From an uncultured Actinomycetota bacterium (GTDB taxonomy: Bacteria; Actinomycetota; Actinomycetes; Mycobacteriales; Micromonosporaceae), in contig CAWIMS010000005.1 in assembly GCA_963837285.1 (NCBI GenBank), forward strand, positions 1,844,437-1,908,436: a stretch of DNA of 64,000 bases, written 5' to 3'. A program made the position numbers and the translations under genes. Positions 30,254 through 50,454 of this stretch are shown here, piece after piece; positions within the stretch are counted from its first letter, which is position 1; each line of letters opens with the position of its first letter. Under the pieces are notes generated by a model. That model searched no databases. It worked only from the letters and a program-made list of their open reading frames with translations, and was not told where the DNA came from.

Positions 30254-30279
30254 GCGACGACCCGGCGGAGAGGGACGCT

Positions 30280-31023: not shown

Positions 31024-31444
31024 CACGCTTGCCGTCAGGACGGCGTACCCCGAAATCCTGCAGTTCTACGCGAAGCACATGCGGCTGCTCGACGAGGGAG
31101 CCGCGGAGGAATGGGCGGACGACTTCACCGGGGACGCCGTATTCACCCAGAACGTCAAGCCCGTCCCGTGGCGGGGCCGGGGCGAGATCGCCGCGTTGAT
31201 GCGGCGTGGCGCCGACCGGCTGGCAGCGAGCGGTATCGTCCGGCGCCACTGGCTCAGCATGGTGTCGATCGACCGGGAGGACGACGACACCGTCCACACG
31301 CGCTACTACGCGGTGATCTTCGAAACCCCCAAGGGCGGAAAGCCGTCGGTGCACCTGTGCACGACCGGCGAGGACGAACTCGTCCGGCACGGTGATCGCT
31401 GGTTGGTGAGGTACCGCAGCATCGCCCACGACGGAGTGGCATGA
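31007..31444 (+). CDS. NTF2/SnoaL-like protein
   Basis: 145 aa. The pattern (FYAKHMRLLDEG...WADDFTGDAVF...RRHWLSMVSI...) is consistent with the SnoaL_4/NTF2 fold. GTG start overlaps the SDR 3' end. Confidence 0.6.
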   Translation: MDSTGNTLAVRTAYPEILQFYAKHMRLLDEGAAEEWADDFTGDAVFTQNVKPVPWRGRGEIAALMRRGADRLAASGIVRRHWLSMVSIDREDDDTVHTRYYAVIFETPKGGKPSVHLCTTGEDELVRHGDRWLVRYRSIAHDGVA

Positions 31445-31463
31445 GCCCGAAGGGAAGATCTTC

Positions 31464-33119
31464 ATGACGAGCAGCGAACACCAGTGCGACGTCTTCATCC
31501 TCGGCTCGGGCCTGGCCGGCTCGATCACCGCGTCGATCCTCGCGCGCCAGGGCGCCTCGGTGGTGCTCGCCGACGCGGCCTCGCATCCCCGCTTCGCGGT
31601 CGGCGAGTCGATGACCCCGCAGATGGTCGAGTGGTTGCACATCCTGGCCCTCCGCTACGACGTACCGGAAATCAAGAACCTCCTGGACTTCGACACGGTC
31701 ATCGATCGGATCGGACCGTCCCACGGCCGGAAGGAGAGCTTCGGGTTCGTCAAGCACGACCCGGGCCAGGAGCCAGATCCGCACGAGACCACGATGTTCC
31801 TGATCCCGCAGATGCTCACCAAGGCCTGCCACCTGTTCCGGCAGGACTCGGACGCCTACTACTTCCACGTGGCGGCCCGGTACGGCTGCGTGACGAGGCA
31901 GAACTGGCGGGCCGCCGATCTGGACTTCGACGATGACGGGGTCACCGTCAGCGGGCAGAACGGCGAGGTGTTCCGGGCCCGGTACCTGATCGACGCCAGC
32001 GGCTTCCGGTCCCCGCTGGCCGAGAAGTTCGATCTGCGCGACAAGCCGTGCCGGTTCAAGCACCACGCCCGCTCGCTGTTCACCCACTACATCGGGATCA
32101 AGCCGTTCGACGACGTGAGCCGGCACCCGGAAAGCCTGCGCCCGCCGGGCCGCTGGCACGCGGGTACGCTGCATCACCTGATCGAGCGGGGCTGGTTCTG
32201 GATCATCCCGTTCGACAATCACAAGGACGCCAAGAATCCACTGTGCAGTGTCGGGCTCACGTTCGACGAACGGCTGTATCCCAAGCCCACGGACATGACG
32301 CCGGACGAGGAGTTCGACCACTACCTCGACATGTACCCGGCCATCAAGCGACAGTTCGACGGGGCGCAGCGGGTCCGCGAATGGGTCTCCACCGACCGGA
32401 TCCAGTACTCCTCGAAGCGATCCGTCGGATACCGCTGGTGCCTGATGTCGCACGCCGCCGGGTTCATCGACCCGCTGTTCTCGCGCGGCCTGTCCAACAC
32501 GTTCGAGGTGGTCGATGCCCTCGCCGGCCGGATCCTCGCCGCGTTGGGGGACGACGACTTCTCGGTCGAGCGCTTCGAGTACGTGGACCGGCTGGAGCGC
32601 GGCCTGCTGGACTACAACGACGAACTGGTGAACAGCTCGTACATCTCCTTCTCGCACTTCCCCCTCTGGAACGCGGTGTTCCGAGTCTGGGGGGCCACGC
32701 AGACCCCCGGTGCGTTCCGGCTGACCCACGCTCGGCTGGCGTACACCCGTGACGGCGACGACCGGCACTTCCAGGAACTGGAGAACAGCAGGTACCCGGG
32801 ACTGTGGTGGCCGGAGGACGACCTGGTGAAGAACCTGCTCGAACTCACGGCGGAGACCTGCGAGAAGTACGAGGTCGGCGAGCTGGACGGGGACACCGCC
32901 GCGGCGACGATCCTCGCGCGGGTCCAGGAGTGCGAGCTGGTCAACTCCACCTTCGGGTGGAAGGACCCGGAGCACCACTTCGCCGCGCCGAGCACCCGGG
33001 ACATGCTCCGCTACCTGTACTGGGCGAGCACCAGGGCGCCGGCCGGACTGCGCCGGCACGGACGCGCGATGGCGAACGGAATCCTCTGGTCCGCCCTGCA
33101 CGGCAAGCGGGTCCACTGA
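31464..33119 (+). CDS. Flavin-dependent halogenase
   Basis: FAD motif ILGSGLAGS, halogenase signature GWFWIIP (WxWxIP), and FIDPLFSRG (FxxPxxSxG). Confidence 0.85.
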   Translation: MTSSEHQCDVFILGSGLAGSITASILARQGASVVLADAASHPRFAVGESMTPQMVEWLHILALRYDVPEIKNLLDFDTVIDRIGPSHGRKESFGFVKHDPGQEPDPHETTMFLIPQMLTKACHLFRQDSDAYYFHVAARYGCVTRQNWRAADLDFDDDGVTVSGQNGEVFRARYLIDASGFRSPLAEKFDLRDKPCRFKHHARSLFTHYIGIKPFDDVSRHPESLRPPGRWHAGTLHHLIERGWFWIIPFDNHKDAKNPLCSVGLTFDERLYPKPTDMTPDEEFDHYLDMYPAIKRQFDGAQRVREWVSTDRIQYSSKRSVGYRWCLMSHAAGFIDPLFSRGLSNTFEVVDALAGRILAALGDDDFSVERFEYVDRLERGLLDYNDELVNSSYISFSHFPLWNAVFRVWGATQTPGAFRLTHARLAYTRDGDDRHFQELENSRYPGLWWPEDDLVKNLLELTAETCEKYEVGELDGDTAAATILARVQECELVNSTFGWKDPEHHFAAPSTRDMLRYLYWASTRAPAGLRRHGRAMANGILWSALHGKRVH

Positions 33120-36162: not shown

Positions 36163-37011
36163 CTATCCAGGGCGGCGGTGCGCCGTGACGAGATAGCTCT
36201 GCGGCCACCGGTTGTCGCCGCGCGGCACCGGCGGCCAGGTCCACCGGCCGAAGTGGGCACCGTCGTCGCCGTACCGGGTGACCTGCGCGTCCCAGCCGTG
36301 CCCCGCCAGCAGTGCCTCCGGGTCGTCCGTGCCGAACCGCATGGGCATTCCCGCGTCGGTGAACTTGCGCAGCCACGGCGCGAACGGCGGGAAGGTCAGC
36401 AACGAGCGCCCGACGAAATCGGTCAGCAGCGCGTCGCCGGCATGGGCCAGCCCGCCGATGGCGCCCAGGAGCTGGTCGATCTGCCCGGCGTCGAGGTACA
36501 TCAGCAGTCCCTCGACCAGCCAGACCGTCGTGCTGTCGCGCAGGCCGGCCGCCACCAGCGCGGCGGCCCAGCCGCCGGCCAGGTCAGCGCGGACCGGGGT
36601 CCGGTCGACCTTGGCCTGTGCGCCGAGGCCCGCGAGCCGGTCTTCCTTGACGGCCAGCACCTCGGGCCGGTCGAGCTCGAAGAACCGCACCCCGGCCGGC
36701 AGTGGCAGCCGGAACGCGCGAGCGTCCATGCCGGCGGCCAGCATGACGACCTGGCGGGCATGCCCGTCGGCGAGCAACCGCAGCAGCGCGTCGTCGAAGA
36801 AGCGGGTACGGATCGGAACCGTCATGCCGGTGCCGTCGCCGGGTGCCGACATGCTGGTGAGCAGGCGTTCCCCTTCCGGCCCCGCCAGCGCGGCGGCGTA
36901 CGGGTCCTGGAACAGCGCGTCCGGCCGGGCCGTCTCACGGGCCCGCTCGGCGGCCATCCACTGCGCGGTGAGCGACACCGGATGGGCGGGGGGAACGTCT
37001 ACATCGGACAC
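36163..37011 (-). CDS. SAM-dependent O-methyltransferase, leucine-carboxyl-methyltransferase (LCM/TIGR00027-like) family
   Basis: ORF 36163..37074. GTG 37011 lies 7 nt after the YcaO stop, with GAGG upstream. SLTAQWMAAERARE...DPYA...IRTRFFDD...VVMLAAGMDARAFRL. Confidence 0.75.
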   Translation of the reverse strand: MSDVDVPPAHPVSLTAQWMAAERARETARPDALFQDPYAAALAGPEGERLLTSMSAPGDGTGMTVPIRTRFFDDALLRLLADGHARQVVMLAAGMDARAFRLPLPAGVRFFELDRPEVLAVKEDRLAGLGAQAKVDRTPVRADLAGGWAAALVAAGLRDSTTVWLVEGLLMYLDAGQIDQLLGAIGGLAHAGDALLTDFVGRSLLTFPPFAPWLRKFTDAGMPMRFGTDDPEALLAGHGWDAQVTRYGDDGAHFGRWTWPPVPRGDNRWPQSYLVTAHRRPG

Positions 37012-37018
37012 AATCGCC

Positions 37019-38926
37019 TCACGGGAACGGATGCGGGTGCGGGTTGATGTCGGCCACGGTGAGCGTACGGTCACGGTACCCGAGCCGGTGTGGCACCTCG
37101 AACAGGCGGGGTAGGCCGTCCACCCTCCGGGCGCGGTGCCCGAACGTCATCGGCAGGGTGCCGGGGACGATCGCCTTCACGCAGGCGAAGCCTCCGGCGC
37201 GGTGTTCGGGTGTGGTCTGGTCCACCACGACGACGTCGAGGCCGTCACCGAGATAGCGGCCGAGCAGTTCGTCCAGGTCGGCGCGCAGGTCGTCGTGGTG
37301 GGGCCAGTGCCAGGTGCCGGCGAAGTCGCCGAACGGGCGGGGCTCGGCGTCGAGCAGGAAGTCGAAGCGCCCGAAGGCCTCCGGGTGGTTGTAGAGCAGC
37401 GCATGGTCGTCCATGACGCGTACCAGGTCGGGATCGCGCACCATGGCGGCGGCCCGGTCCCGGTCACGCGGGTAGGTCAGCAGCCGGTACTCGATCATCA
37501 TCGCCAGTTCCTGCAACGCGTTGACCACGCCGCGTTCCGGCGTGAGCGCGGAACCGCCGGCGCACATGGCCTTCGGGCGGTCCGGGTCGCCGGACCCGTC
37601 GACGGCCATCACCCAGAAGGACGGGATGCGCTGTTCAAGGGTGTCCGTGAAGACGAGGACCTGATAGCCGGTGTGATGGCGGATCCGTTCGACGATCAGG
37701 CCGATCCGCGGGCCGGCGGCGCTGGCCGGGTCGAGTCGCGGCACCGGCATCCGGGCGTACCAGGTCATCAGGAACGCGTCGCGTTCGGCGATCTCGACCA
37801 GGCCGTGGATGACGGCCTCCTCCAGGCAGCTGCCGAGGGCGCAGCCGTTGGAGATCTCGTAGACGAACGGCCGGTGCTCGGGCGGCCCACCGCCGTGCCG
37901 CCGGTGCAGGCCGTAGTACACATAGGACTCCGGTACCAGTACCGGCCGGCCGCTACCGAAGGAATAGCCCCACACCCAGTTCATGACCAGCTCGTCGTGG
38001 TAGGGCTGGAAGGGGAAGTCCGCGGTCGCGTACCGGTCCGGCGGGTACAGGCCGAGGGCTACCGGGTCGAGCGCCTCGCCGACCAGCTCCCGATGGCAGC
38101 CCCGCACGACGGTACGCCGGCCACCGGGCCGGACGCCGCCCATCCGTTCGAGCGCCTCGGCGATCGCGGTGAGCCGGGAGCTGCCGAAGTCGAGGGTACG
38201 CCCGTAGCCTTCCTCGCTGGCCGCGCCGCCCGCCCGGTGTGCCGTCACCATCGGCAGCAGGTAGTCGCCGCTGGGCCGCAGTGGATTGAGCAGCCCGGTC
38301 TCGGCGTCGACGTAGGAGGCGAGCAGCTCCGGTTCGACCGCGGCGAGATCCCGGATCCGTACCGTCGACGGCGACACCTTCGGCAGCGACCGTGGCACCA
38401 CCACCGCGGCGGCGGGGGTGTCGGCGGGCAGGCCGCCGCAGGCCGGGCAATCGGGGTCGGGCAGGAACCGGTGTACCCGTACCCCCAGCGTGGCGAGGTC
38501 GAGCATGACCGCCGCGCCGTCGACGCGGCTGGTCCGCCCGGCGGACCATGCGGCGACCTCACGTGCCACGATCGCGGCGGCGGCGTCGACAGCCAGCGGG
38601 CCGAGCAGCGGAGACACTGTCCGGGGCAGGGCGTCCTCGTGCGCTGACGGCAGGTCGCCGAACCCACGGGCGGCGGCGCGGCGGCGGCGCAGGCACGCCC
38701 TGCACCCGGCGACCCCGGGCCGGACCAGCGGCCCGATCACGATCCGGTCCAGCTCGCCCTGGACCGGCAGCCACGGCGTGCGGTCAGCGGTCGCCCACAC
38801 CGCTTCGGTACCCGCGACCGTGTCGCCCGCCACGATGGTAAGTGGGCGCTCTGTCCACTCCGGACGGAGAACGGGCACGAGTGCGTCGTAGAGGTCTCCC
38901 GAGCCGACGACGGTCACTGTGGTCAT
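37019..38926 (-). CDS. Fused E1-like/YcaO cyclodehydratase (PatD/TruD-type)
   Basis: 635 aa. The N-terminal half has Cys pairs (GCRACLRRR, DPDCPACGG). YcaO motifs SSRLTAIAEALERMGG and GLVEIAERDAFLMTWY. ATGA overlap with the upstream gene at 38923-38926. Confidence 0.9.
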   Translation of the reverse strand: MTTVTVVGSGDLYDALVPVLRPEWTERPLTIVAGDTVAGTEAVWATADRTPWLPVQGELDRIVIGPLVRPGVAGCRACLRRRRAAARGFGDLPSAHEDALPRTVSPLLGPLAVDAAAAIVAREVAAWSAGRTSRVDGAAVMLDLATLGVRVHRFLPDPDCPACGGLPADTPAAAVVVPRSLPKVSPSTVRIRDLAAVEPELLASYVDAETGLLNPLRPSGDYLLPMVTAHRAGGAASEEGYGRTLDFGSSRLTAIAEALERMGGVRPGGRRTVVRGCHRELVGEALDPVALGLYPPDRYATADFPFQPYHDELVMNWVWGYSFGSGRPVLVPESYVYYGLHRRHGGGPPEHRPFVYEISNGCALGSCLEEAVIHGLVEIAERDAFLMTWYARMPVPRLDPASAAGPRIGLIVERIRHHTGYQVLVFTDTLEQRIPSFWVMAVDGSGDPDRPKAMCAGGSALTPERGVVNALQELAMMIEYRLLTYPRDRDRAAAMVRDPDLVRVMDDHALLYNHPEAFGRFDFLLDAEPRPFGDFAGTWHWPHHDDLRADLDELLGRYLGDGLDVVVVDQTTPEHRAGGFACVKAIVPGTLPMTFGHRARRVDGLPRLFEVPHRLGYRDRTLTVADINPHPHPFP

Positions 38927-39924
38927 GCCGGTCCCTCCTCATCGCACAGGTCCGCGGCGGCGAGGGCGGCCAGGCCACGCAGGAACCGTTCCTCCGCAAG
39001 CCCGATGCCGAGCCGGTTGCACAGCAGGTGGGCGCAGTTGTCGATGGCGAACGCGGTGGCCGGCAACGGCATCCCGGTGGACGCTGCCAGGCCGGTCGGC
39101 GTGAACCGGTCAGACGCCTCCAGGCCCGCGAGGGTGCGCCACAGGTCGTCGACCGACCGGCACCACCCGTCCAGAAACGTGTCGCCGGTCGTCCCGGGAC
39201 CGCGTACCCGGCGGGCCACGGCCGCGAGAGTGGCGCGGCGCTTCTGGTACACCGCCGCGTCCCGGGCGGTGTCGTCGGCCGTGGACACGGCCTGTGCCCA
39301 GATCCGGCGGGTCCGGTCGAGCCGCCGCGCGAGGTGGGCCGGGTCGGACTCGCCAGCCAGCAGCGCCCCGAAGGCGAGCACCCGGCGGCGCTCGGCGGGC
39401 ACCTTCCGGCCGACCAGGTCCAGCGCGAGGTCGCTGGAGCGCTCGAAGTGCCGTTCGACGGCCGCGAGCGGGGCGCCGGTGCCGTACTTGTGGTGCTCGG
39501 GTCGGTACTCGAAAACCCGCAGAGAGTTGTTGGACTGCAAGGGAAGGTCGGGCTCGCCCGGCTCGGCGCGGTCAAGCACGCGAGCCTGCCGCGCGTATTC
39601 CTCGGGTGACAGCGTGTCGGCCGACGGGTGCACAGCGAAGAACCGGTGGCTGTGCCGACGAGCAGCGGTGCGAACATCGGTCGCACCGCTGCCGTCGTGC
39701 GGCAGCAGGCGCAGTCGAATGTGCGGACCGCCCCGCCAGTACCGCAGGAAGAAATACCGGGCGAGCAGGTTACCCTCCCGCAACTCGGCTACCAGCGGAA
39801 GCACCAGCTCGCGAAGCAACAGATCCGACGAACCCTGGTAGAACAGATGAACGCTCAGCCAGCCACGCCGGGATGGTGCGTCGGCTGGATCCGGCCGCAC
39901 CGCCGTCGGGATGTCTGGTCGCAC
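38923..39924 (-). CDS. LanB C-terminal-like protein (thiopeptide-type bacteriocin biosynthesis domain): glutamate-elimination enzyme or [4+2] pyridine synthase
   Basis: WLSVHLFYQGSSDLLLRELVLPLVAELREGNLLARYFFLRYWRGGPHIRLRL is the signature N-terminal block of the Lant_dehydr_C family. GTG start lies 34 nt after the precursor stop. Confidence 0.8.
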   Translation of the reverse strand: MRPDIPTAVRPDPADAPSRRGWLSVHLFYQGSSDLLLRELVLPLVAELREGNLLARYFFLRYWRGGPHIRLRLLPHDGSGATDVRTAARRHSHRFFAVHPSADTLSPEEYARQARVLDRAEPGEPDLPLQSNNSLRVFEYRPEHHKYGTGAPLAAVERHFERSSDLALDLVGRKVPAERRRVLAFGALLAGESDPAHLARRLDRTRRIWAQAVSTADDTARDAAVYQKRRATLAAVARRVRGPGTTGDTFLDGWCRSVDDLWRTLAGLEASDRFTPTGLAASTGMPLPATAFAIDNCAHLLCNRLGIGLAEERFLRGLAALAAADLCDEEGPA

Positions 39925-39958
39925 GTTTCTATCCGGGTTCCGGTGCCGTTCGGATCAA

Positions 39959-40129
39959 TCAGCAGCAGTAGCAGCTGCAACACAACAGGGGCGGCAGCAC
40001 GAAGGAGGCACCCACCTCGGGCATGCTGTAGCCAGCGGTCAGAGAGTCTTCCCAGGAATCACCTTCGACGCCGAGTGGTTCCAGCGTGAGGTCTTCCAGG
40101 GCGTCGGCGAACGCCTTGTCAACGGGCAT
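39959..40129 (-). CDS. Thiopeptide-type RiPP precursor peptide (56 aa): MPVDKAFADALEDLTLEPLGVEGDSWEDSLTAGYSMPEVGA / SFVLPPLLCCSCYCC
   Basis: This is the internal ATG 40129 of track ORF 39959..40309, preceded by GAGGAGGG with a 7-nt spacer. Acidic leader and a Cys-rich C-terminus (6 Cys, 2 Ser in the last 15 aa). It is first in the minus-strand RiPP operon. Confidence 0.85.
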   Translation of the reverse strand: MPVDKAFADALEDLTLEPLGVEGDSWEDSLTAGYSMPEVGASFVLPPLLCCSCYCC

Positions 40130-40203
40130 GGTTGCACCCTCCTCAATCAGAGGCGGCGGCCGCGGAGTGCGGCCGATGACAATTGCCGGAGGGTACTGAC
40201 GCA

Positions 40204-40220
40204 ATTGACGAGGGGTCAAT
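40204..40220. promoter_or_regulatory. Palindrome ATTGAC-N5-GTCAAT in the divergent RiPP promoter region
   Basis: Read directly from the sequence. It lies in the 332-nt lower-GC intergenic region between the precursor (-) and the ThiF-like gene (+). Confidence 0.25.
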
Positions 40221-40461
40221 GGAATCACTTGACCGACGACTCTTGGTGGCGAATGAACACATGCCGCTCCGGACGTGCGGTTATGTTCAACAAATGGCAT
40301 GGTCCACAAAGGACTCTGCCCATAAGGTCTGCCCGATAGGGAAAGACGGTCGCAACCATTCGAACAAGCTTCGAGCCAGGGACAACACGGCAGGGTTGAC
40401 GTCAGCGGATCTGGTAGCCCATATTCGGCCGTGCTGGCGATTCGGCATTCCTGGAGTTCCC

Positions 40462-41424
40462 GTGAAACCGAGACTGGCCGACGACGTCCATTTCCTGCCC
40501 CGCCCCGATGGAGTATTCGTTCTGCTCACCTCGCAGCCGGATCGCGGTTTCGGGATCAGCGGCCGGCATGCGTACGAGTGGCTGACCCGCATCGCCCCGT
40601 TCCTCACCGGTGAACATGACCTGGACGCGCTCCTGGGTGGCGTCGGCGAGCAGCGGCGGGAGCGCGTCCGGGCGCTGATCGCGAGACTCCATAGTGGAGG
40701 CGCCCTTCGCGACGCGTCCGGTGACCTCCCGCACAGCCTGCCCGGGGAGGTCCGCGACCGGTACGCCCCGGTGATCGGCTTCATCGGCCGCGGTGCCGAC
40801 TCGCCGGAGCACCGGTTCCAGCGCTACCGGGAGTGCCACCCGGTCGTCGTCGGCTCCGGGCTGCTGGTCGCGCCGTTGGTGCAGGCGCTGCTGACGACCG
40901 GGGTGACACAGGTACAGGTGATCCGGACCGCCGACCAGCCAATCGACCTGGACCGGATGCGCGACTGCCTGGCGCTGGTGGGGCCCGACGCGTGGGAGCG
41001 GGTACGGGTCGGGACCGGGGACCCGACCGGCGCGCTGGCCGCCGCCGGCGGCGTCCTCCACGTCAGCGACGTCCCCGACCCGGACCGCAGGGACCGGCTG
41101 GTCGCGTCGGGTGCCGCACGCGGACGGATCTTCGGCTCGGCCACCGTCGACGGTGACGTGGCGCTGATCGGCCCGGTGGGCGACGCCGCACGCCTGAGCC
41201 CCGGCGCCGCGTGCCCGAGCCCCGGCCCGGAAACGGCCGCGTCCCCCACCGGGTCCGTCAGCGACCTCCTCGCGGGTCCGGTGCCCGCGCTCGTCGCCAA
41301 CCACCTCTGCGCGGCGTTCCTCAAGCAGGTCACCGGGCTGCCGAACGACGCGGCGGAGCGGATCGTCGAGCTCGACCTGGAGACGTTGCGCACCCGCGTA
41401 CGACCGGTGGTCACGACGCCATGA
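40462..41424 (+). CDS. Ocin-ThiF-like/E1-like protein (short form; probable leader-binding partner)
   Basis: ORF 40183..41424 with GTG 40462. HRFQRYRECHPVVVGSGLLVAPLVQALLTTGVTQVQVI is paralogous to the N-terminal half of the 47324..49333 product (RFQRYRNSPVLVVGAGAALVTLL). Confidence 0.65.
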   Translation: MKPRLADDVHFLPRPDGVFVLLTSQPDRGFGISGRHAYEWLTRIAPFLTGEHDLDALLGGVGEQRRERVRALIARLHSGGALRDASGDLPHSLPGEVRDRYAPVIGFIGRGADSPEHRFQRYRECHPVVVGSGLLVAPLVQALLTTGVTQVQVIRTADQPIDLDRMRDCLALVGPDAWERVRVGTGDPTGALAAAGGVLHVSDVPDPDRRDRLVASGAARGRIFGSATVDGDVALIGPVGDAARLSPGAACPSPGPETAASPTGSVSDLLAGPVPALVANHLCAAFLKQVTGLPNDAAERIVELDLETLRTRVRPVVTTP

Positions 41425-43001
41425 CCAGCACGGTGGACGGCACGGTGGACGGCACGGCGACCGGGTACTGGCACGACGCGATCTACGACCCACTCGGCAC
41501 GCTGCTCGACGGCGTCGAGGACCGCAACGTCAAAGAAGGCGATCCCGGCGAGCCGCTGCGGCACAAGACGTACCCTGGCCTGCCCCGCCGGGCGCTGCCA
41601 CCACCCGCGCTGACCTTGTGCACACCGCCGGCCGGGGCGTGGCTCGGCACCTTCCTCTACTACTCCTACGGCGTCCATCGCCACGACCCGGAGCCGGGCA
41701 GTTGGCCGTACCACCGGCTGGTGCCGTCCGCCCGTTGCTTCTTCCCGACCGAGTTCTACCTCGCGCTGGCGCCCGGCCGCGACGACGGTGACGAGGGAGT
41801 GCACTACTACGACCCGATGCACCACACGCTCGTCCGGCTCCGCGACGGCGACCACCGCGGCGTCCTTGCCGACGCCACCGGCGCGGACCTGAGCGGCGCC
41901 GCCGCCGTGGTGGTGCTGTCCGCGCTGTTCTGGAAGACCGCTTTCCGGTACCGCGACTACGCCTACCGGCTGTGCGCCCAGGAGGCGGGCCTGGTCGCCG
42001 GCAACGTCCTGCTGGTGGCCGAGGCGCTGGGGATGTCGGCGCACGTCCACTTCCTCTTCCGGGACCGGTCGGTGCACCGGCTGCTGGGCCTGCGGGAACC
42101 GGCCGAGAACGCCTTCGCCGTCGTCGCCCTGTACCCGTGTGACGCGAGCGGGCGCGGCCGGCCGCTGCGGCCCGCGCCGGCAGGTGCCGGCGACGCCGCC
42201 GAGGCCCTGCCGGACCTGCGCACCGTCCACGGTGAACCGTCCGGGTACGACGCCGATGCGGTGCCGGTGTTGACCCGCGTCAGCCGGGCCGCCCTCATGC
42301 CGACGGCCGCCTCGCCGGTCGGCGGCGTGGGGATCCGGCCCGCGCGACCGCCCGCGACGACCCCGGTCCTGACGGCACCGGTCGACCCGCCCGCCGGCAC
42401 GGACGCCGACCTGGCTGGCGCGCTGCGGGCCCGCGACTCCGGCCCCGGCTACCTGGCCTTCCGGCCGGCCGACGTGCCGGCGGAAGCCGTGTGGCGCATC
42501 GTCCGCGACGTGACCCGCCCGTACCCGTGCGATGTCGCCGCACCCTCCGGCGAGCCCGTGACCGACTGCCACCTGGTGGTCCGGTCGGCCACCGGCATCG
42601 CGGCGGGCGTCTACCGGGTGACGTCCGGGGTTGCCCTGGAGGCCCACCGCATCGGGCCGGTCGACGAGGTACTGCACGACATCGCCCTGGCCGACTTCAC
42701 GATGTCCACGGTGGACTTCGCCGGTGCCCCGCTGACCGCGTTCGTGTCCGTACCTCGCCGTGCCGCGGACGTTCTCGGAGCGCGTGGCTTCCGGATCCTC
42801 AGCCAGGCCGCCGGCATCGCCGCTCAGCGGATCTGTGTGGCGAGCGCGTACAGCGGGCTGGTGGCGCGGGTCCACAACGGATACTCCGCGGTGGCGGCGG
42901 AGCGGTGGCTCGGGCTGGCAGACGGCGACACGGTGCTGTTCCAGATCGCGATCGGCGCCGCGCGTCCCGCTCCGGCGCTCAAGCTCCCGGTGGTGTTCTG
43001 A
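41421..43001 (+). CDS. SagB-type FMN dehydrogenase (two nitroreductase-like halves), copy 1
   Basis: ATG 41421 forms an ATGA overlap with the upstream stop. HRLVPSARCFFPTEFYLAL...GVHYYDP and FRYRDYAYRLCAQEAGLVAGNVLLVAEALGM. Confidence 0.8.
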   Translation: MTSTVDGTVDGTATGYWHDAIYDPLGTLLDGVEDRNVKEGDPGEPLRHKTYPGLPRRALPPPALTLCTPPAGAWLGTFLYYSYGVHRHDPEPGSWPYHRLVPSARCFFPTEFYLALAPGRDDGDEGVHYYDPMHHTLVRLRDGDHRGVLADATGADLSGAAAVVVLSALFWKTAFRYRDYAYRLCAQEAGLVAGNVLLVAEALGMSAHVHFLFRDRSVHRLLGLREPAENAFAVVALYPCDASGRGRPLRPAPAGAGDAAEALPDLRTVHGEPSGYDADAVPVLTRVSRAALMPTAASPVGGVGIRPARPPATTPVLTAPVDPPAGTDADLAGALRARDSGPGYLAFRPADVPAEAVWRIVRDVTRPYPCDVAAPSGEPVTDCHLVVRSATGIAAGVYRVTSGVALEAHRIGPVDEVLHDIALADFTMSTVDFAGAPLTAFVSVPRRAADVLGARGFRILSQAAGIAAQRICVASAYSGLVARVHNGYSAVAAERWLGLADGDTVLFQIAIGAARPAPALKLPVVF

Positions 43002-43002
43002 G

Positions 43003-45642
43003 ATGGCCGGGGCCGGCGAGATCGGGGTGCGGATCGCCGGCCTGCCCGCCGCCGCGGTCGAGGGGCTGCGGTGCCCGGACGCGGCCGGCTGCGTCGGGGA
43101 GATCCTCGCCCTGGAGGACCGGCTCGACGCCGAGGCGCGGGCCATCTGTGCGGCCCTGTACGAACTGATCGGCGACGATCGGGGGCCCGGCGGCAAGCCC
43201 CGGCTCGTCGGCCTCCGGCGGGCGATCCACGCCGGCCGGCGTCCCACGGCGCACCTGGTCCACGAGGACGTGCAGCGGGCTCTCGCGCCGGAACTCGCGG
43301 ACCTGATCCGGTGCTGGGCGGGCCGGCTGGACCGGCGCGACGCGCTGTACCGGCAGTTGCCCGACCTGCTGCGCGCCGACGTCGACGCGGCCGCGGCCGC
43401 GCTCCGCGCGACGGTGGCGGGCCCGACCATGCAACTGGGGCTGGTGTACTCGCACCCCGCCATGTTCCGCGACGCCCGCCACTGGGTCGCGCGGTCCGGC
43501 GGTCGCCCGGCCGACAAGGTGGCCGTCCGGCTGGCCCGGTACGTGTCCCGCGCAGCCGCCAAGACCAGTCCCCTGACCACGTTCACTGCCAGCGGCCTCG
43601 GCGAGTGGCGGGACGGCGGTCCCCCGCTCGCGCTGTGCGACCGGTCCCCGCGCAGCGCCGTCGAACTCGATCTCACCGCCCTGCACCGGATGATTGTCGG
43701 GCTGGCCACCCGGCCCGCCACCGCCGGGCAGATGCTGGTCCGGGTCAACCCGACCGCGACCGTCGACGGCGACCAGGTGCGGTTCGTCGCGCCCGGTGGT
43801 TCGGGCACCGCACGCGCGGTGCGGCTCACGCCGGCCGTCGACGCGCTGTTGCTCCGCGTGCCGCCCGGGACGACCCGTGCGCAACTGCGCGACCGGCTCG
43901 CCACGGCCGTCGCCGACCCGGCGCACGCCGCCCGCGCCGACGAGTTCGTCGACCGGCTGCTGCGCGCCGGACTGCTCGAACTGCATCTGCCCATCGCCGA
44001 CCAGGCGCTGCATCCCCGAGCGGTCCTGGCCTGGTTGGACGGGCCGGCCCGGGACCTGTCCGGGGATCCGGAGGTCGCCCGGTTGCGCACCGTCCTGGGC
44101 CAGATCGCCGACCTGCTCGACGCGTACGCGGCGTCGGCCGACGCCACGCGGCGGCTCGCGTACCGGGAACGGATCGACGGCGCCGCCCGGGATCTCGCGG
44201 GGCGGGATGACCCGCCCGCCTTCTACGAGAACGCCGTGCTGCCCGGTACCTGCCTGACCGCCGACACCGGCCGGTGGGCGACCACAATGGACGACCTGGC
44301 CGCCGTGACGGAGTTCGGCCGGCTGTACGACCCCGGTCTGCCGGCGCGGCTGATGCTGCCCACGTACGTCGCCGAACGGTACGGCCCCGGCGCCGCGATC
44401 CCGTTCCTGTGCTTCTACGCCGCCTGGGAGGCGGAACTGCGCGACCGACCGCGCCCGGCGGACCGGCTGGTGGCGGCGGCCGACCTCGATCCGGCGCAGT
44501 TGTGGACCCGGTCCGGCCAGGCCGGCACGGTGGCACAGGATCTGACGACAAGCTCGATTCCCGACCTCGCCCGGTTGGGCCGGCTACGGCAGGCGGCCTC
44601 GGCACTCCTGGGCCGGGCACCGGTCGGCGCTGACGCGGCCGTCACGATCGCGCCCGGCGAACTGCGGCGAGCGGCCGCCGGCTGTCCCGGCGGCCCATCC
44701 CAGGCGGGGCAGCCGCTGTCGTGTTACGTGCAGCCCTACATCGCCGGTGGCCACACCCGGCTCGTCTTCAATTCGGCCCGGTTCGGCCTCGGCACCGGCC
44801 GTACCCGCATCCGGCACCTGGTCCGCACGGCGCACGGACCCGATGCGGTAGCGGACCCGTCCCAGCCACTGCCGGCACCCCACGACGGGCCGCTGTACGT
44901 GGAGGTCGAGTCGGCGTTCGGCTCCTCGCTCAACCAACGTGACCCGGCTGTCGACCTCGTCCTCGCGTACCCGGGCACGGTCAGCGCCCGGCCCGAGCGG
45001 TGCCGGGTGCCGCTCGGCGAGCTGCGGGTCGTCCACGATCCGTCGGCGGGACGGGTCCGTCTGGAGTGGACCCGTGCCGGCCGGGAGGTGCAGCCGGTCC
45101 ACCTCGGACTGCTGGCCGTGCCGATGCTGCCACCGGCGGTGCGTTTCCTGGTCGGCGCGTTCAGTGCGGCGTCGTACCTGTTCACACCGTCGCTGCTGGC
45201 GTGGAGCGAGGTCGCCGGAGCCACCCCGTTGGACATCCGTTCCTGGCCGCGCCTGCAGGCCGGCGGCGTGACCCTGCGCCGAGCCGGCTGGTGGGTGCCC
45301 TCGGCGCTGGTACCCCGGCGCGCTGCCGGCCAGTCGGACGCGGCCTACCTGCTGGACCTCGCACGCTGGCGGCGCCGGGTGGGGCTGCCGGAACGGTGCT
45401 TCGTCCGCGCCGCGGCGAGCGGCTGGCGAGCCGACGCCGCTCTGCTGGGCAAGGAGCGCAAGCCGATGTACGTCGACTTCGGCAGCTGGCACCTCGTCCG
45501 GGTGTTCGAACGGATGGCCGGCCCCGCCGACGTCGATATCACCGTCGAGGAGGCCCTGCCGGACCTCGCCGACCTGCCCCGCACCGAGTCGGGAGAGCGG
45601 CGCGTGGTGGAACTCGTCGTCGAGCTGCCCGGGTATCCATAG
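43003..45642 (+). CDS. Split LanB, N-terminal glutamylation-type lantibiotic dehydratase
   Basis: ATG 43003 lies 1 nt after the upstream stop. 879 aa. VSRAAAKTSPLTTFTASGLG matches the LanB (R..TPFG.FA)-type block. There is no GPHxRxR elimination block. Confidence 0.85.
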   Translation: MAGAGEIGVRIAGLPAAAVEGLRCPDAAGCVGEILALEDRLDAEARAICAALYELIGDDRGPGGKPRLVGLRRAIHAGRRPTAHLVHEDVQRALAPELADLIRCWAGRLDRRDALYRQLPDLLRADVDAAAAALRATVAGPTMQLGLVYSHPAMFRDARHWVARSGGRPADKVAVRLARYVSRAAAKTSPLTTFTASGLGEWRDGGPPLALCDRSPRSAVELDLTALHRMIVGLATRPATAGQMLVRVNPTATVDGDQVRFVAPGGSGTARAVRLTPAVDALLLRVPPGTTRAQLRDRLATAVADPAHAARADEFVDRLLRAGLLELHLPIADQALHPRAVLAWLDGPARDLSGDPEVARLRTVLGQIADLLDAYAASADATRRLAYRERIDGAARDLAGRDDPPAFYENAVLPGTCLTADTGRWATTMDDLAAVTEFGRLYDPGLPARLMLPTYVAERYGPGAAIPFLCFYAAWEAELRDRPRPADRLVAAADLDPAQLWTRSGQAGTVAQDLTTSSIPDLARLGRLRQAASALLGRAPVGADAAVTIAPGELRRAAAGCPGGPSQAGQPLSCYVQPYIAGGHTRLVFNSARFGLGTGRTRIRHLVRTAHGPDAVADPSQPLPAPHDGPLYVEVESAFGSSLNQRDPAVDLVLAYPGTVSARPERCRVPLGELRVVHDPSAGRVRLEWTRAGREVQPVHLGLLAVPMLPPAVRFLVGAFSAASYLFTPSLLAWSEVAGATPLDIRSWPRLQAGGVTLRRAGWWVPSALVPRRAAGQSDAAYLLDLARWRRRVGLPERCFVRAAASGWRADAALLGKERKPMYVDFGSWHLVRVFERMAGPADVDITVEEALPDLADLPRTESGERRVVELVVELPGYP

Positions 45643-47327
45643 TGGACGGCTTGAGCGCGGCCCGCCGGTACCTGCGCGACTGCGGCCACGCCGAAGTCAG
45701 CGGCGCCGTCGACGAGGCGACCGTGCCGCCGCCGTTCCCGACGCTGCGCGGGGCGCCGCGGATACCGTTGCCGTACCCGATCGGCCAGGGCATCGCCGTC
45801 GACGCGGCGGGCAGCCCGGTATCGTTGTCCCGCGCGGTCCTGGGCGACCTCGCCGGGTACCTTCTCGGGCTGACCCGCATCCACTGGCTGCCCGACGCCG
45901 AGCTGGAGACGCTGAGCCGCACGGGCCTGCTGTCCGCGGACGCGGACAGCTCGGTGGTGCCCGGGCGGCCGACCCCGTCCGGGGGCCGCCGCTACCCGTC
46001 CGAGCTCTACCTGGCCAGCCGGGTGCTGCCGGGCCTGCCCGCCGGGCTGTACCGCTACGCGCCGGCCCGGCACGCGCTGGAACGGTTGCGGGCCACCGAC
46101 ACCCGTGCCGACGTGCTCGGGTCGCTGTCCACGCCGCCGCACGGCACACCGGACGTGATCCTGTTCCTCACCAGCGTGTTCTGGCGCACCGCGGTCAGGT
46201 ACGGCGAGTACGCCTACCGCCTGCAGGCCCTCGACGCCGGTGCGCTGGCCGGGCATGCCCTCGCCCTCGGAGACGCCGCCGGACTGCACGCGACGATCCA
46301 CCTCGACTTCGCCGACGGGCCGGTCCACGGTCTCCTCCGGGTCGATGCGGCGCGGGAGAACTGCCAGGTGATCGTCACGATGACGGCCGAAGCGGGACCG
46401 GCGGACGGTCCGCCGCCAGCGGGCACCAGCCCGGAGCCTGCGCCTCCGATCGCGCTTCCCGGCCCGGCGCGGGACGTGCTGCCGCTGTCCGCCGCGCTGC
46501 ACGCCGCTTCCGCGCGCGATGCCTCTCTGCGCGATGCCTCTCTGCGCGATGCCTCTCTGCGCACCGCCTCCCCGCACGCCGCCTCCCCGCACGCCGCCTC
46601 CCCGCACGCCGCCTCCGTGCGCGACGCGCCTACGGGCGCCGGCAACGGCGTTGAGGCGTGTGCCGGGCAGAACGCGTCAGGCGGAGTCCGGCTCGCCGGC
46701 CGGCCGGTGCGCGCCGCCGCCGGGATACCGCACCGCTATTCGGCGACGCCGGGATTCCGCCCGGACCCGATCCGTGCCGACGACCTCGCCGCCATCCTCG
46801 CCACCGCGTGCGCCGGTTACGCCGGTGACCTCCCGGACACCACCGGGTACGCCACCCAGGTCCCGCTGTACGTCATCGCCAACCGCGTGACGGGCCTGAC
46901 CGCCGGTGCGTACCGGTACGACCCGGTGTCCGGGCGGCTCGCGGCGGTGCGGACCGGCGATCTGCTCCCCGTACTCGCGCCCGGCCTGACCGTGTCGTAC
47001 CCGGCCGTGTCCGAGGCCGGTGCCGTCGTCGTCGCGGTCGGCGACTACGAGCGCGGCTTCCCGCGGCGCGGGGACCGCTGGTACCGGATGCACACCATCG
47101 GGTGCGGCCTGGTCGCCGAACGCGTCTGCCTGGCGGCGGCGGCCCTGCGGCTCGGATCGCACCTGCGGTGCGACTTCGATCCGGCGGTCGTCGGTCACGT
47201 GCTCGGACTCGACCCGCGGGCGCAGACACCGGTCGCGATGGTCCTTGCCGGGCCGCCACGGCTGCCGCTGCCGCTGCACGTCCCGTTGACGCTGGGTGCC
47301 GTATCCACAAGGGAGGCAGGACGATGA
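45642..47327 (+). CDS. SagB-type FMN dehydrogenase (two nitroreductase-like halves), copy 2, with repeat linker
   Basis: GTG 45642 shares one nt with the upstream TAG (TAGTG). GGRRYPSELYLASRVLPGLPAGLYRYAPARHAL and VRYGEYAYRLQALDAGALAGHALALGDAAGL. The second half contains GAYRYDPVSGRL. Confidence 0.8.
   Translation: MDGLSAARRYLRDCGHAEVSGAVDEATVPPPFPTLRGAPRIPLPYPIGQGIAVDAAGSPVSLSRAVLGDLAGYLLGLTRIHWLPDAELETLSRTGLLSADADSSVVPGRPTPSGGRRYPSELYLASRVLPGLPAGLYRYAPARHALERLRATDTRADVLGSLSTPPHGTPDVILFLTSVFWRTAVRYGEYAYRLQALDAGALAGHALALGDAAGLHATIHLDFADGPVHGLLRVDAARENCQVIVTMTAEAGPADGPPPAGTSPEPAPPIALPGPARDVLPLSAALHAASARDASLRDASLRDASLRTASPHAASPHAASPHAASVRDAPTGAGNGVEACAGQNASGGVRLAGRPVRAAAGIPHRYSATPGFRPDPIRADDLAAILATACAGYAGDLPDTTGYATQVPLYVIANRVTGLTAGAYRYDPVSGRLAAVRTGDLLPVLAPGLTVSYPAVSEAGAVVVAVGDYERGFPRRGDRWYRMHTIGCGLVAERVCLAAAALRLGSHLRCDFDPAVVGHVLGLDPRAQTPVAMVLAGPPRLPLPLHVPLTLGAVSTREAGR
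46515..46619 (+). repeat. Seven in-frame 15-nt tandem units (RDASL x3, RTASP, HAASP x2, HAASV)
   Basis: CGCGATGCCTCTCTG x3, then CGCACCGCCTCCCCG, CACGCCGCCTCCCCG x2 and CACGCCGCCTCCGTG. The array sits between the two halves of dehydrogenase copy 2. Confidence 0.9.
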
Positions 47328-49333
47328 GCGACGCGGCAACCGGGCTCGCCGGGATGCGACCGCACCTGCGCGACGGCGTTCACTGGGTACCGACCGGATC
47401 CGGTGGCGTCCACGCCGTCACCAGCCGCGGACGGTTCACCCTGCCCGGTGGCGACGGCCATCGGTGGGTCACCCGGCTGACGCCCTTCCTCGACGGTACC
47501 CACACCGTCGCCCAACTGACCGCGAGCGTTCCGCCGGAACGCCGGGCGAAGGTCGAGGAGGTCCTGCGCTGGCTGCACCGCCACGGCCTCGTGCGGGACC
47601 TGTCGCGGGAACGCCCGCACACCCTGACCGACGCCGACCAGCGCAGGTACGCCGGCACGCTGCGCTACCTGGCCGAGCACACCGAGGCGGCCGGCCACCG
47701 GTTCCAGCGGTACCGGAACAGCCCGGTACTCGTCGTCGGCGCCGGTGCCGCGCTGGTCACCCTGCTGCGGGCCACCCTCCGCGCCGGTAGCCGGCAGGTG
47801 ACCGTGGTCGACACCGGTGCCGCCGACCGGGACCGGCTCGTCGACGTCGTGTCCGCCGCGGTACGCGTGGACCCGGACCAGATGTGCACGCTGCTCGACG
47901 GCGAGGCCACGCCCGAGCTGGTCGGCGCCGTCGACCTGGTCATGCACGTGGCCGGCCCCGATACGCTGCCGCGCGCCGAGAAGCTGGACGCGCTCTGCGC
48001 CGACCGGGGCGCGGCGCTCTGCCAGGCGGTGATCGCGGACGGCGAGGCGTGGCTCGGCCCGGTCAGCGATCCGGACGATCCGGCTACACAGTGGACGGCG
48101 GCCTGGCGGCGGCTCGGCACCTGGCCTGCCGCCGCACCGTCCCTGGTGGACGATGGAGTCCTTGACCTGCTGGCCGCCCAGCTCGTTCTGCGATGCCTGC
48201 GCCGCCTCACCGGCATCGATGACGCCGCCGGACACACCGTGGTCCGGCTCGACACCGGCACGCTGGGCACCTCGATACACCCGTTCACGCCGCATCCGCT
48301 GGCGGTGCCGGCGACCGCGCAGACTGCCGGCGACTTCTCGCGGCGGATCGCCGAACTTCGCGCCGCGCCTGAGGCGGGCGATGCCGACTTCTCCCGAGCG
48401 GCTTCGTCCCTTGTGGACGAACATACCGGGGTCCTGACGTATCTCGGCGAACGGTCCTTCCAGCAGCTCCCGTTGTGGGTGACGGAGGCAACCGTCACCG
48501 ACCCGCGCGGAGTCGCGGCGACGGTCCACGGCGCCGCCACCGGCTTCACCACCGCCCGGCACCGGGCCGCCCGCCGGGCGCTGGAACTGTACGCCTCGGC
48601 CATGTTCGACCGGCGACGGCTCCTCGCCGCGGACGGCACGGTACCCGATGTGCCGCCCCCGCCCGGTGACGGCTGGCTCCGCGGATGGCGCCTCGACGAC
48701 CGCGGCGAACGGCTCGTTCCGGCGTCCGCCGTCTTCACCACCGCGCCCGGCGGGCCGCACCTGCCGGCCGGCGTGGCATCCGGACCGACCTGGGCGGCCG
48801 CGGTCGAAACCGGCCTCCTGCGCTTGTGCCGGGAACTCACCGTGGCCGACGCGCTCACCGCCGCCGGCCCCTTCCCGGCTGTCGAACTGGACCGGGCCGG
48901 GCTGGACGGGACCGCGCTCGATGAGGCCGGGCAGCGCATGCTCGGCATCCTGCGGCTGTTCCGGGCACCGGTCACGGCGTACGACATCACGGGTGCGCTC
49001 GGCGTGCCCACGTACGCCGTGTACCTGGACGGCCGGCCGGTCGCCTATGCTGCCGGGTGGTCGCCGGCCGACGCGTTACGCGACGGCCTGGAGCAGGCGG
49101 TTCTCGCCTGCCAGTCCGACCTGGCCGGCGAGCCCGACTACCGTCCACCGCCCGTACCCGGTCTGCTCAACCGCGCCCGAGAGGGCCGCCCGTCTCCACC
49201 ACCGGCCGGGTACGCGCGGGTCGTCGACGTCCTGGCGGCGCGGGTCGGCCCGCCGGTCGCCGTCCCGCTCGACCACGATCCCGCGCTGGCCACCGCACTC
49301 CCGTTCGCCGTCCGGGTCGTCGCCGGCCCGTGA
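47324..49333 (+). CDS. Ocin-ThiF-like protein, long form (E1-like N-terminal half, YcaO-like but motif-degenerate C-terminal half)
   Basis: ATG 47324 forms an ATGA overlap. 669 aa. Rossmann-like VLVVGAGAALVTLL. The C-terminal half follows the YcaO pattern (GAATGFTTARHRAARRALELYAS, GPTWAAAVETGLLRLCRE, ITGALGVPTYAVYL) but lacks the E..ER / ERD acidic motifs. Confidence 0.65.
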   Translation: MSDAATGLAGMRPHLRDGVHWVPTGSGGVHAVTSRGRFTLPGGDGHRWVTRLTPFLDGTHTVAQLTASVPPERRAKVEEVLRWLHRHGLVRDLSRERPHTLTDADQRRYAGTLRYLAEHTEAAGHRFQRYRNSPVLVVGAGAALVTLLRATLRAGSRQVTVVDTGAADRDRLVDVVSAAVRVDPDQMCTLLDGEATPELVGAVDLVMHVAGPDTLPRAEKLDALCADRGAALCQAVIADGEAWLGPVSDPDDPATQWTAAWRRLGTWPAAAPSLVDDGVLDLLAAQLVLRCLRRLTGIDDAAGHTVVRLDTGTLGTSIHPFTPHPLAVPATAQTAGDFSRRIAELRAAPEAGDADFSRAASSLVDEHTGVLTYLGERSFQQLPLWVTEATVTDPRGVAATVHGAATGFTTARHRAARRALELYASAMFDRRRLLAADGTVPDVPPPPGDGWLRGWRLDDRGERLVPASAVFTTAPGGPHLPAGVASGPTWAAAVETGLLRLCRELTVADALTAAGPFPAVELDRAGLDGTALDEAGQRMLGILRLFRAPVTAYDITGALGVPTYAVYLDGRPVAYAAGWSPADALRDGLEQAVLACQSDLAGEPDYRPPPVPGLLNRAREGRPSPPPAGYARVVDVLAARVGPPVAVPLDHDPALATALPFAVRVVAGP

Positions 49334-49353
49334 CCACACCGGAGGACCGACCC

Positions 49354-50454
49354 ATGCAGACACCGACCTGGCGAGCAGTCCACGTGTACTACTACGACGA
49401 GAACAAGGACGACCTGATCCTCGACGCGGTCCGGCCGGTGCTGCGCCGCGTCGCCGAGGACGTGCGGTGCGCGTACTTCGTGCGACACTGGCGGCGCGGG
49501 CCGCACGTGCGGATTCCGGTGCTCGCGACGCCCTCGGCCTTCACGTCGGTGGTCGAGCCCGCCGTCGCCGACATCGTCCGCGGCTACCTCGCGCGGCGAC
49601 CGTCCACGACCGCCCTGCCACCGGAGGCGGTCCTGCTGCCGATGCACGAACGCCTCGCGGAACTGGAGATGGAGACCGGACCGCTGCGCCCGCTCGTGCC
49701 CGACAACAGCGTTCTGTTCACGGAGCACGACCGGCGCCTCGACATGCTCGACGGCGAGGTGGGTTCGGACCTGCTCGCCGAGTTCTACGCCACGACCAAC
49801 GACCTCGCGTTCGCCATGCTGGAGGAGATCCGGTCCGGCCGTACCCGAGAGTTCGTGGGCCTGTCGCTCATGCTCGCGGTCGCCCACGCGTTCGGTGGCG
49901 AACCGGCCATCGAGCGCGGGTTCGTCTCGTTCCGGTCGCATGCCGAGGCGTTCCTGTACGGATCCTCCGACCAGGTGGGGATCCGCGCCCGCTTCGACCG
50001 GGAGTACCTGGCCAACGCCCGGGCGCTGACCGGGCTGGTACGCGCCGTAATGGACACCGTGGACGGCCGGTCCACCGCCGTGCCGTTCGTCACCGAGTGG
50101 GTGGCCGCGTTACGTCCACTCTGGACGGTGTCCGAGTCGCTCGTCGCCTCCGGCCGCCTGCGGCTCACCGCCGGGGTACCGGAAGGCGACAGCGACGCCG
50201 CGGCGGGAAAGCTCGCCGACAGCCCGATACACCGGCTCATGCTCGGCAGTGACACGTTCCGGCGACTCGTCTTCGACGATCCGCAGTTCACGCGGTACCG
50301 CCTGGTGCTCAACTACACGTATCTGCACCTGGCCCGGCTCGGGATCATGGGGTACGGCCGGTACCGCCTGTGCCACCTGGCCGCGAACGCGGTCGAAAAG
50401 GCGCTTGGCGTCGATGCCATACGGATCGTCGAGGAAGCGGCAGGCCGGCGGTAG
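49354..50454 (+). CDS. LanB C-terminal-like protein, second copy (elimination enzyme or [4+2] pyridine synthase)
   Basis: ATG 49354 follows GGAGGA. WRAVHVYYYDENKDDLILDAVRPVLRRVAEDVRCAYFVRHWRRGPHVRIPV. Confidence 0.8.
   Translation: MQTPTWRAVHVYYYDENKDDLILDAVRPVLRRVAEDVRCAYFVRHWRRGPHVRIPVLATPSAFTSVVEPAVADIVRGYLARRPSTTALPPEAVLLPMHERLAELEMETGPLRPLVPDNSVLFTEHDRRLDMLDGEVGSDLLAEFYATTNDLAFAMLEEIRSGRTREFVGLSLMLAVAHAFGGEPAIERGFVSFRSHAEAFLYGSSDQVGIRARFDREYLANARALTGLVRAVMDTVDGRSTAVPFVTEWVAALRPLWTVSESLVASGRLRLTAGVPEGDSDAAAGKLADSPIHRLMLGSDTFRRLVFDDPQFTRYRLVLNYTYLHLARLGIMGYGRYRLCHLAANAVEKALGVDAIRIVEEAAGRR

Follow-up and report, generated by a model that had tools for sequence, protein, structure and literature searches.

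A Thiopeptide Cluster with One Intact YcaO and Two F-Type Proteins

The window, the whole 64,000-nucleotide stretch of DNA analyzed here, contains a complete thiopeptide gene set: a pyridine synthase, a split LanB, a YcaO protein, a dehydrogenase, and a two-Ser precursor (Table 1). By gene content, the cluster is therefore assigned to a thiopeptide pathway, and its predicted product carries a pyridine macrocycle and thiazoles. The methyltransferase possibly forms a C-terminal methyl ester. The first-pass annotation of this DNA had described three E1 modules with a single intact YcaO, which is correct; the six Cys that it had counted in the core are five. A literature search for the core sequences returned no match. 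CC runs such as those in this core occur also in clusters with one F protein.

Table 1. Features of the cluster, in order of position in the window
Feature	Position	Strand	Evidence or remark
LCM-family methyltransferase	36163..37074	-	PF04072 153 bits; present in related clusters too
F-dependent cyclodehydratase, 635 aa, RRE-less E1 + intact YcaO, PxP-type C-terminus	37019..38926	-	TIGR03604
Split LanB elimination domain (TbtC-like)	38923..39924	-	PF14028 127 bits
Precursor, 56 aa, predicted 15-aa core SFVLPPLLCCSCYCC, 2 Ser + 5 Cys	39959..40129	-	Related precursors in other loci
Short F protein, 320 aa (+ stop), RRE + E1, no YcaO-like half	40462..41424	+	Paralogy, RRE, predicted complex
Dehydrogenase 1, SagB/nitroreductase-type, SARC-motif subtype	41421..43001	+	Translationally coupled to short F
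Split LanB glutamylation domain (TbtB-like)	43003..45642	+	PF04738 101 bits
Dehydrogenase 2, canonical PSGG-motif subtype (TbtE-like)	45642..47327	+	TIGR03605 145 bits; coupled to long F
Long F protein, 669-aa ORF	47324..49333	+	RRE, E1-like domain, YcaO-fold domain
Pyridine synthase (TbtD-like), start 49330 or 49354	49330..50454	+	NF045556 446 bits, cut-off 325

The 669-aa Protein Is a Thiopeptide F Protein

The long F protein consists of an RRE (residues ~10–92), an E1-like domain (100–330), and a catalytically dead YcaO-fold domain (350–669). Its N-terminal RRE matches that of PbtF (E 3e-10; 2e-32 by profile), and its AlphaFold2 model (pLDDT 94) aligns with LynD over the whole length (Z 23.5, 555 residues aligned, rmsd 5.7). 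The C-terminal half belongs to the YcaO superfamily by score and by fold, as judged from Pfam PF02624 (38.7 bits; gathering score 25.7), a profile–profile comparison with the intact partners (E 1.3e-26), and superposition on Methanocaldococcus jannaschii YcaO (6peu; Z 22.6, rmsd 3.6, 286 residues). At the sequence level profiles were needed to see the relation, pairwise BLASTP of long F against the intact YcaO being too weak (E 0.018).

Comparison by hhalign with Bacillus members of TIGR03693 (ocin_ThiF_like; reference members scoring 1252 and 776) gave a probability of 100 over 607 columns, end to end. Long F itself scores 129.6 bits, below the curated cut-off of 561.9, as do all actinobacterial relatives tested; by this score it is no formal member of the family. 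The first-pass annotation had allowed that the C-terminal half might simply be the standard C-terminal region of TIGR03693 proteins, with no relation to YcaO; it is that standard region, yet it is YcaO-derived. With an RRE, an RRE-less E1–YcaO partner, and full-length ocin-ThiF-like homology all present, the protein is a thiopeptide F protein of the TbtF/PbtF/HcaF type, for which leader binding and cyclodehydratase activation are the predicted role.

The partner scores 339 bits against TIGR03604 (cut-off 219) and has all five glutamates, so the clear YcaO motifs first ascribed to it stand. Its assignment as a PatD-type fusion does not: the gene, which lies on the minus strand, encodes an E1–YcaO fusion lacking ~100 N-terminal residues, as expected of an F protein's partner. 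It begins at the equivalent of long-F residue 132, its open frame extends upstream by only 4 codons, and no RRE was found in it, which makes it an F-dependent fusion rather than a PatD-type protein. Modeled from its sequence alone, the YcaO gave no usable structure (pLDDT 34). None of 24 intact partners has an RRE, and an intact E1–YcaO lies directly downstream of long F in 21 of 23 long-F loci, as it does in a second cluster of the same genome. Tbt/Hca-type cyclodehydratases are RRE-less E1–YcaO fusions that require an F protein (PMC4603692), and further literature supports this reading (PMC12710340, PMC6395948). Long F and its partner are thus the textbook arrangement; the cluster has no stand-alone YcaO architecture, and the double architecture that had seemed unusual is the usual Tbt/Hca-type pair.

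The YcaO Half of the Long F Protein Has Lost Its Catalytic Residues

A YcaO alignment with mapping of the ATP/Mg positions, a check suggested at first pass, places R418, E421, R500, R503, and Q591 of long F at the five glutamate positions, so that one glutamate (E421) is kept and three ligand positions are Arg; the Ser and Asn of the SNG motif are also lost. The Pro-rich C-terminal tail is absent: the protein is ~39 residues short, and its model stops at LynD residue 736 of 775. The C-terminal half therefore lacks both hallmarks of an active YcaO, the ATP/Mg glutamates and the Pro-rich tail of azoline-forming YcaOs, and its earlier description as YcaO-like with degenerate motifs was accurate. 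The same holds across the family, the half being common to 380 clusters at 50% identity. At least three of the five glutamates are retained in 0/108 homologues, and a PxP end likewise in 0/108, whereas all 24 intact partners keep five acidic residues (17 with five Glu, 7 with four Glu and an Asp) and 22 of them end in HPFP. As judged from these residues, the YcaO half is catalytically disabled in the whole family.

These losses bear on the proposal that the C-terminal half is a second active YcaO with another chemistry, such as amidine or thioamide formation. The half does retain the YcaO fold and E421, but four of the five glutamates, the SNG Ser and Asn, and the C-terminal tail are gone, with Arg at three ligand positions, family-wide. 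Thioamide-forming YcaOs still rely on the ATP motifs (PMC8120280), and the TfuA of a YcaO–TfuA thioamide system was not found in the cluster; the only one in the genome (C5:46454) lies 1.8 Mb away beside another YcaO. We regard a second chemistry as highly improbable. The other option raised at first pass, a non-catalytic leader-binding scaffold, was the right one.

Conservation within the dead domain suggests a further alternative, in which it has been repurposed, without ATP, to bind the core or azoline intermediates or to regulate the active partner allosterically. The mean majority fraction of the dead half (0.49) resembles that of the RRE (0.50) and exceeds that of the E1 domain (0.41), and the Mg-ligand positions are often Arg rather than random. 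The domain also has invariant residues of its own (R412, Q597, P660, and PLDHD), which count against a purely passive role. On the other hand, it is eroded in Bacillus, shortened in loci L007 and P0012, and absent from TclI (242 aa) and from the F protein of locus L028, which argues that it is not needed for azole formation in general. Repurposing is, on balance, unlikely. A literature search for inactive, pseudo-, or degenerate YcaO proteins, whose coverage did not extend to the main F-protein papers, returned nothing, including no statement that F proteins are dead YcaOs.

The Short F Protein Is Probably Paired with Dehydrogenase 1

The unusual part of the cluster is not the degenerate YcaO half but the short F paralogue. 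Its paralogy with the N-terminal half of long F, already recognized at first pass, is confirmed by 32% identity over 328 columns (E 9e-35), and it falls in a distinct clade of 18 (support 100/100). Short F lies directly upstream of the dehydrogenase 1 subtype in all nine contexts seen, once as a lone two-gene cassette. The predicted complex of the two scores 0.90 (best control 0.01), with at least 93% of contacts common to the runs and a partner pLDDT of at least 85. Of 80 solved pairs 58 reached the mark for such scores, against 2 of 110 mismatched ones; these figures are rough as the alignment was our own. The score may mirror likeness to the solved McbB–McbC contacts, and proteins closely related to a true partner can also reach the mark; the predicted complex hence does not demonstrate specificity over long F.

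Conservation of the predicted interface is marginal (p 0.054). A GP motif at the start of the predicted docking helix is found in 17 of the 18 clade members (SP in one) and is missing from all five long F proteins known to accompany a short F, although GP was probably lost just once among these five and is lacking in many further long F proteins as well. A metagenome scan with the short-F alignment gave no confirmed match. SARC-type dehydrogenases occur also without short F, and a requirement of the SARC enzyme for short F was rejected on these grounds; a tie between short F and Pro-rich cores was weakened by locus L050, where a short F occurs without any Pro in the core. From the gene coupling and the modeled complex, short F is likely a dedicated scaffold for dehydrogenase 1.

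Alternatively, short F could be an additional or alternative partner of the cyclodehydratase, altering the access to individual Cys of the CC pairs. It carries an RRE and has the same E1 helix with which TclI contacts both enzymes. In loci L003 and L005 its gene immediately follows that of the YcaO, and in L028 the sole F beside a YcaO is one that was truncated independently. This role is nevertheless doubtful: short F is coupled to dehydrogenase 1 throughout and travels with this enzyme even where there is no YcaO, long F is also kept in every complete cluster, and CC runs occur in one-F clusters too. The division of labor put forward at first pass probably exists, but it would run between the two F proteins, each with its own enzyme, rather than between two cyclodehydratases: long F likely serves the cyclodehydratase, and short F a second dehydrogenase, which would separate two tasks that compete for one scaffold in micrococcin TclI.

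A Model for Divided Azole Formation

In a simple model, long F would act as the F component in the azole synthetase of this thiopeptide pathway. It is a whole-length homologue of the LynD/TruD-type RRE–E1–YcaO cyclodehydratases in which the RRE was preserved but catalysis was lost; in its partner, catalysis was preserved and the RRE lost. The long-F RRE would bind the leader, as is known for TbtF/PbtF; its E1 domain would dock onto the partner's truncated E1, and the partner would make thiazolines with ATP, as is known for HcaF/HcaD; and the YcaO half, given its observed residue loss, would be structural, without ATP chemistry. These three steps together are very likely correct. Short F, observed to be coupled to dehydrogenase 1, is predicted to bind the leader and to dock this enzyme via its E1 C-terminal helix. 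The thiazolines would be oxidized by the two dehydrogenases, probably different thiazolines by each. Finally, dehydration of Ser1 and Ser11 would fall to the split LanB, and a ring that their spacing suggests is 29-membered would be closed by the pyridine synthase. With function read from genes and models, the scheme as a whole is quite probably the best explanation of the locus.

Discussion

Long F resembles TbtF/PbtF (thiomuracin, GE2270) and HcaF (heterocycloanthracin) in its PbtF-matching RRE, its E1 domain, its length (~640–670 aa), and its RRE-less E1–YcaO partner. Unlike them, it falls below the TIGR03693 cut-off, is encoded on an operon separate and divergent from that of its YcaO partner, and is accompanied by a short F. 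The Bacillus members of TIGR03693 align with it at full length, but YcaO ancestry is detectable by Pfam in long F and not in the Bacillus proteins. The three-domain fold is that of LynD/TruD/PatD over the whole length; whereas LynD is self-sufficient, binding and catalysis would here be divided over two proteins, long F being without the ATP/Mg ligands and the tail. Short F is like the micrococcin scaffold TclI (with TclJ/TclN), a short RRE–Ocin-ThiF protein that binds the dehydrogenase via one C-domain helix. TclI, however, is the sole scaffold and binds both enzymes competitively, whereas this cluster has two scaffolds and two dehydrogenases. The sulfomycin cluster (SulBC/SulEFG/SulDEFG) also combines several E1/Ocin-ThiF modules with two dehydrogenases, but it has two active YcaOs and an RRE–E1–dehydrogenase fusion, in contrast to one active YcaO and unfused scaffolds here.

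A bolder reading would join these elements: in F proteins, the dead YcaO half would be a selected, repurposed module that binds the core or acts allosterically, and in this subfamily two dedicated scaffold–enzyme pairs would set how neighboring thiazolines are oxidized. The thiopeptide itself, with a ring made up largely of hydrophobic residues left unmodified, would stand between the classical thiopeptides and the pyritides. We consider this combination improbable.

More generally, the apparent anomaly of the locus is gone, as its "degenerate second YcaO" is the F protein normal for such a pathway; two Pfam YcaO hits in a thiopeptide cluster should not be taken as evidence of two cyclodehydratases. 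The data suggest a simple origin for F-dependent enzymes, in which a LynD-like homodimer was duplicated and one copy retained peptide binding, the other catalysis. The Pro-rich, azole-poor core offers an uncharacterized natural-product lead. Short F and the second dehydrogenase may show how nature gets around the scaffold competition of the micrococcin system, an idea that is open to test, and their pairing could matter in the engineering of azole oxidation.

The Long F Protein Ends in a Degenerate YcaO Domain

Translation of the open reading frames recovered all three proteins named in the first-pass annotation (see table). Residues 15–92 of the long F protein correspond to the RRE of PbtF, whose structure is solved (E 3e-10); in GE2270 and thiomuracin biosynthesis this domain binds the leader (PMC12710340). 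Residues 450–590 match Pfam YcaO above the gathering score. In an AlphaFold2 model built on 108 homologues (pLDDT 94), the entire protein matches LynD (Z 23.5, rmsd 5.7, 555 residues), and residues 350–669 match the stand-alone YcaO of M. jannaschii (Z 22.6, rmsd 3.6, 286 residues). Long F lacks the C-terminal tail, since the structural alignment ends at LynD residue 736 of 775.

Positions of the main genes in the window
Feature	Position	Strand	Description
Long F	47324-49333	+	669 aa, ORF translation
Short F	40462-41424	+	320 aa, ORF translation
E1–YcaO enzyme	37019-38926	-	635 aa, ORF translation
Precursor	40129-39959	-	predicted 15-aa core
Dehydrogenase 1	41421-43001	+	SARC subtype
Dehydrogenase 2	45642-47327	+	PSGG subtype

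The description of the C-terminal half as YcaO-like with degenerate motifs was borne out by a profile alignment of the long-F family with 24 intact partners (E 1.3e-26). Five acidic positions are conserved across these partners; we take them from the motifs of Dunbar 2014 to be ATP/Mg ligands, an assignment that also rests on alignments to LynD and the archaeal YcaO. In long F they correspond to R418, E421, R500, R503, and Q591, so that only E421 is kept; the Ser and Asn of the partners' SNG motif correspond to P481 and A482. McbD loses nearly all activity without one such Glu, and the C-terminal Pro matters as well (PMC6395948). Judged by these residues, the YcaO half of long F cannot carry out ATP chemistry. 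A second YcaO chemistry in this half, as previously proposed, is very unlikely, the only TfuA of the genome being 1.8 Mb away. Two further YcaO genes are present in the genome (G000:C5:41489-46813 and G000:C3:218531-219586), one of which, near that TfuA, probably belongs to a thioamide RiPP cluster.

Searches with the C-terminal half collected 380 clusters at 50% identity. The 108 full-length homologues retain at most two of the five Glu residues (none in 53, one in 39, two in 16), and no homologue ends in PxP. Of 23 named genome loci with a long F, 21 have an intact E1–YcaO gene directly behind it. A second such pair occurs elsewhere in the source genome, in a second complete thiopeptide-type cluster (L046, G000:C5:440000-450300) that has a single F, YcaO, and dehydrogenase and whose core is long.

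The C-terminal half could simply be the standard C-terminal region of TIGR03693 (ocin_ThiF_like) proteins, unrelated to YcaO. The first part holds and the second does not. Two Bacillales proteins scoring far above the cut-off align to the long-F family over 607 columns, and their C-terminal halves, which no longer match Pfam YcaO, match the family on their own (E 4e-20 and 8e-22); the region is therefore both the usual C-terminus of F proteins and a descendant of YcaO. Long F, like all actinobacterial relatives tested, scores below the TIGR03693 cut-off, and hence is filed as working like an F protein rather than as a formal member. Database annotation already displays the Pfam YcaO match of F proteins; no statement of their pseudoenzyme nature was found in the part of the literature that was searched. 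A selected binding role for the dead domain is unlikely: conservation equal to that of the RRE and invariant residues of its own speak for it, yet other working or complete systems have the domain in eroded form or lack it altogether.

Partner Enzyme, Cluster, and Precursor

The 635-aa enzyme had been regarded as a self-sufficient PatD-type fusion, a view contradicted by its start at a position matching F residue 132 in the profile alignment and by the absence of an RRE from it and from 23 other partners. Cox et al. described that fused cyclodehydratases lacking ~100 N-terminal residues need an F protein, present in 85% of thiopeptide clusters with such shortened fusions (PMC4603692). By that description one F protein plus one RRE-less fusion is the norm, and not, as first thought, an unusual pair of architectures for one core. 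The simplest history we infer is that a LynD-like enzyme was duplicated and the copies underwent complementary losses.

The thiopeptide cluster around long F is complete and arranged in two divergent operons. It encodes a split LanB, two SagB-type dehydrogenases, a pyridine synthase scoring above its own cut-off, a single YcaO above the TIGR03604 cut-off, and an LCM methyltransferase. Between its two domains, dehydrogenase 2 carries a brief stretch of 5-residue repeats. Of the ORFs scanned around 36163-50454, none was an obvious exporter or resistance gene. A type II polyketide cluster (25564-33119; KS-alpha, chain-length factor, ACP, ketoreductases, and aromatase-like and flavin halogenase-like ORFs) adjoins the thiopeptide cluster.

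The predicted core contains two Ser and five Cys, one Cys fewer than the six originally counted. Its Ser spacing and CCSC stretch at residues 9–12 presumably resemble thiomuracin, from which it differs in residues 2–8, all unmodifiable hydrophobics. The precursor belongs to a subfamily with thiomuracin-like leaders (also at L001, L003, L005, L006, L007, and L050), in which Pro is present in six of the seven cores, adjacent Cys near the C-terminal end in all, and predicted ring sizes vary; a literature search found no paper with this core or that of L007. Thiopeptide-like clusters of Actinosynnema/Saccharothrix (L009, L015, L020-L022, L024) have unusually acidic, Asp/Glu-rich cores.

A Short F Protein with a Probable Dehydrogenase Partner

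Short F is, as had been noted, a paralog of the N-terminal half of long F (32% identity, E 9e-35). Its full-length database homologues (18 homologues in all) are 47–84% identical, and every one lacks the YcaO half. In the RRE–E1 tree 18 short proteins form one group (support 100/100), and the long F proteins accompanying them form a separate one (98/99). With weak support (90/87), the short group neighbors long F proteins, among them the one at locus L054, which is followed by a dehydrogenase of the same subtype as dehydrogenase 1, with SARC where the canonical enzyme has PSGG. Short F lies directly upstream of dehydrogenase 1 in all nine contexts seen, which are related loci and not nine independent events; at L004 they form an isolated two-gene cassette. 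At L054 the sole dehydrogenase is of the SARC subtype, and the precursor core (L054:11823-12005) resembles, we presume, cyclothiazomycin B. Long F is split in two frames in a MAG locus (L006:15249-17427), possibly through a frameshift or assembly error, and no dehydrogenase 2 was seen there.

Complex prediction gave short F and dehydrogenase 1 a score of 0.90, the best control having 0.01. Of 80 solved complexes 58 reached the mark for this score, as did 2 of 110 mismatched pairs; with the user-built alignment these counts apply roughly. At least 93% of contacts recur between runs, and partner pLDDT is at least 85. The model supports binding of short F to dehydrogenase 1, and its score may stem from likeness to solved E1–dehydrogenase contacts, such as McbB–McbC. 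The predicted interface, marginally conserved (p 0.054), is centered on short-F helix 268–287. In micrococcin biosynthesis cyclodehydratase and dehydrogenase compete for a single helix of the TclI C-domain (bioRxiv 10.1101/2023.10.23.563616), and by analogy helix 268–287 would be the same helix. That short F also serves the cyclodehydratase seems improbable. A GP motif opening the helix occurs in 17 of the 18 short proteins and in most sole long F proteins of known context, and is absent from all five long F proteins known to accompany a short F.

In the model we propose, long F would bring the precursor to the single active YcaO, which would form up to five thiazolines, and short F would bring it to dehydrogenase 1; long F is probably also the partner of dehydrogenase 2. 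Dehydration of Ser1 and Ser11 would fall to LanB, and closure of a 29-membered ring to the pyridine synthase. The long F gene that first drew attention is ordinary; it is the short F protein and the second dehydrogenase that set this cluster apart from the known thiopeptide type.
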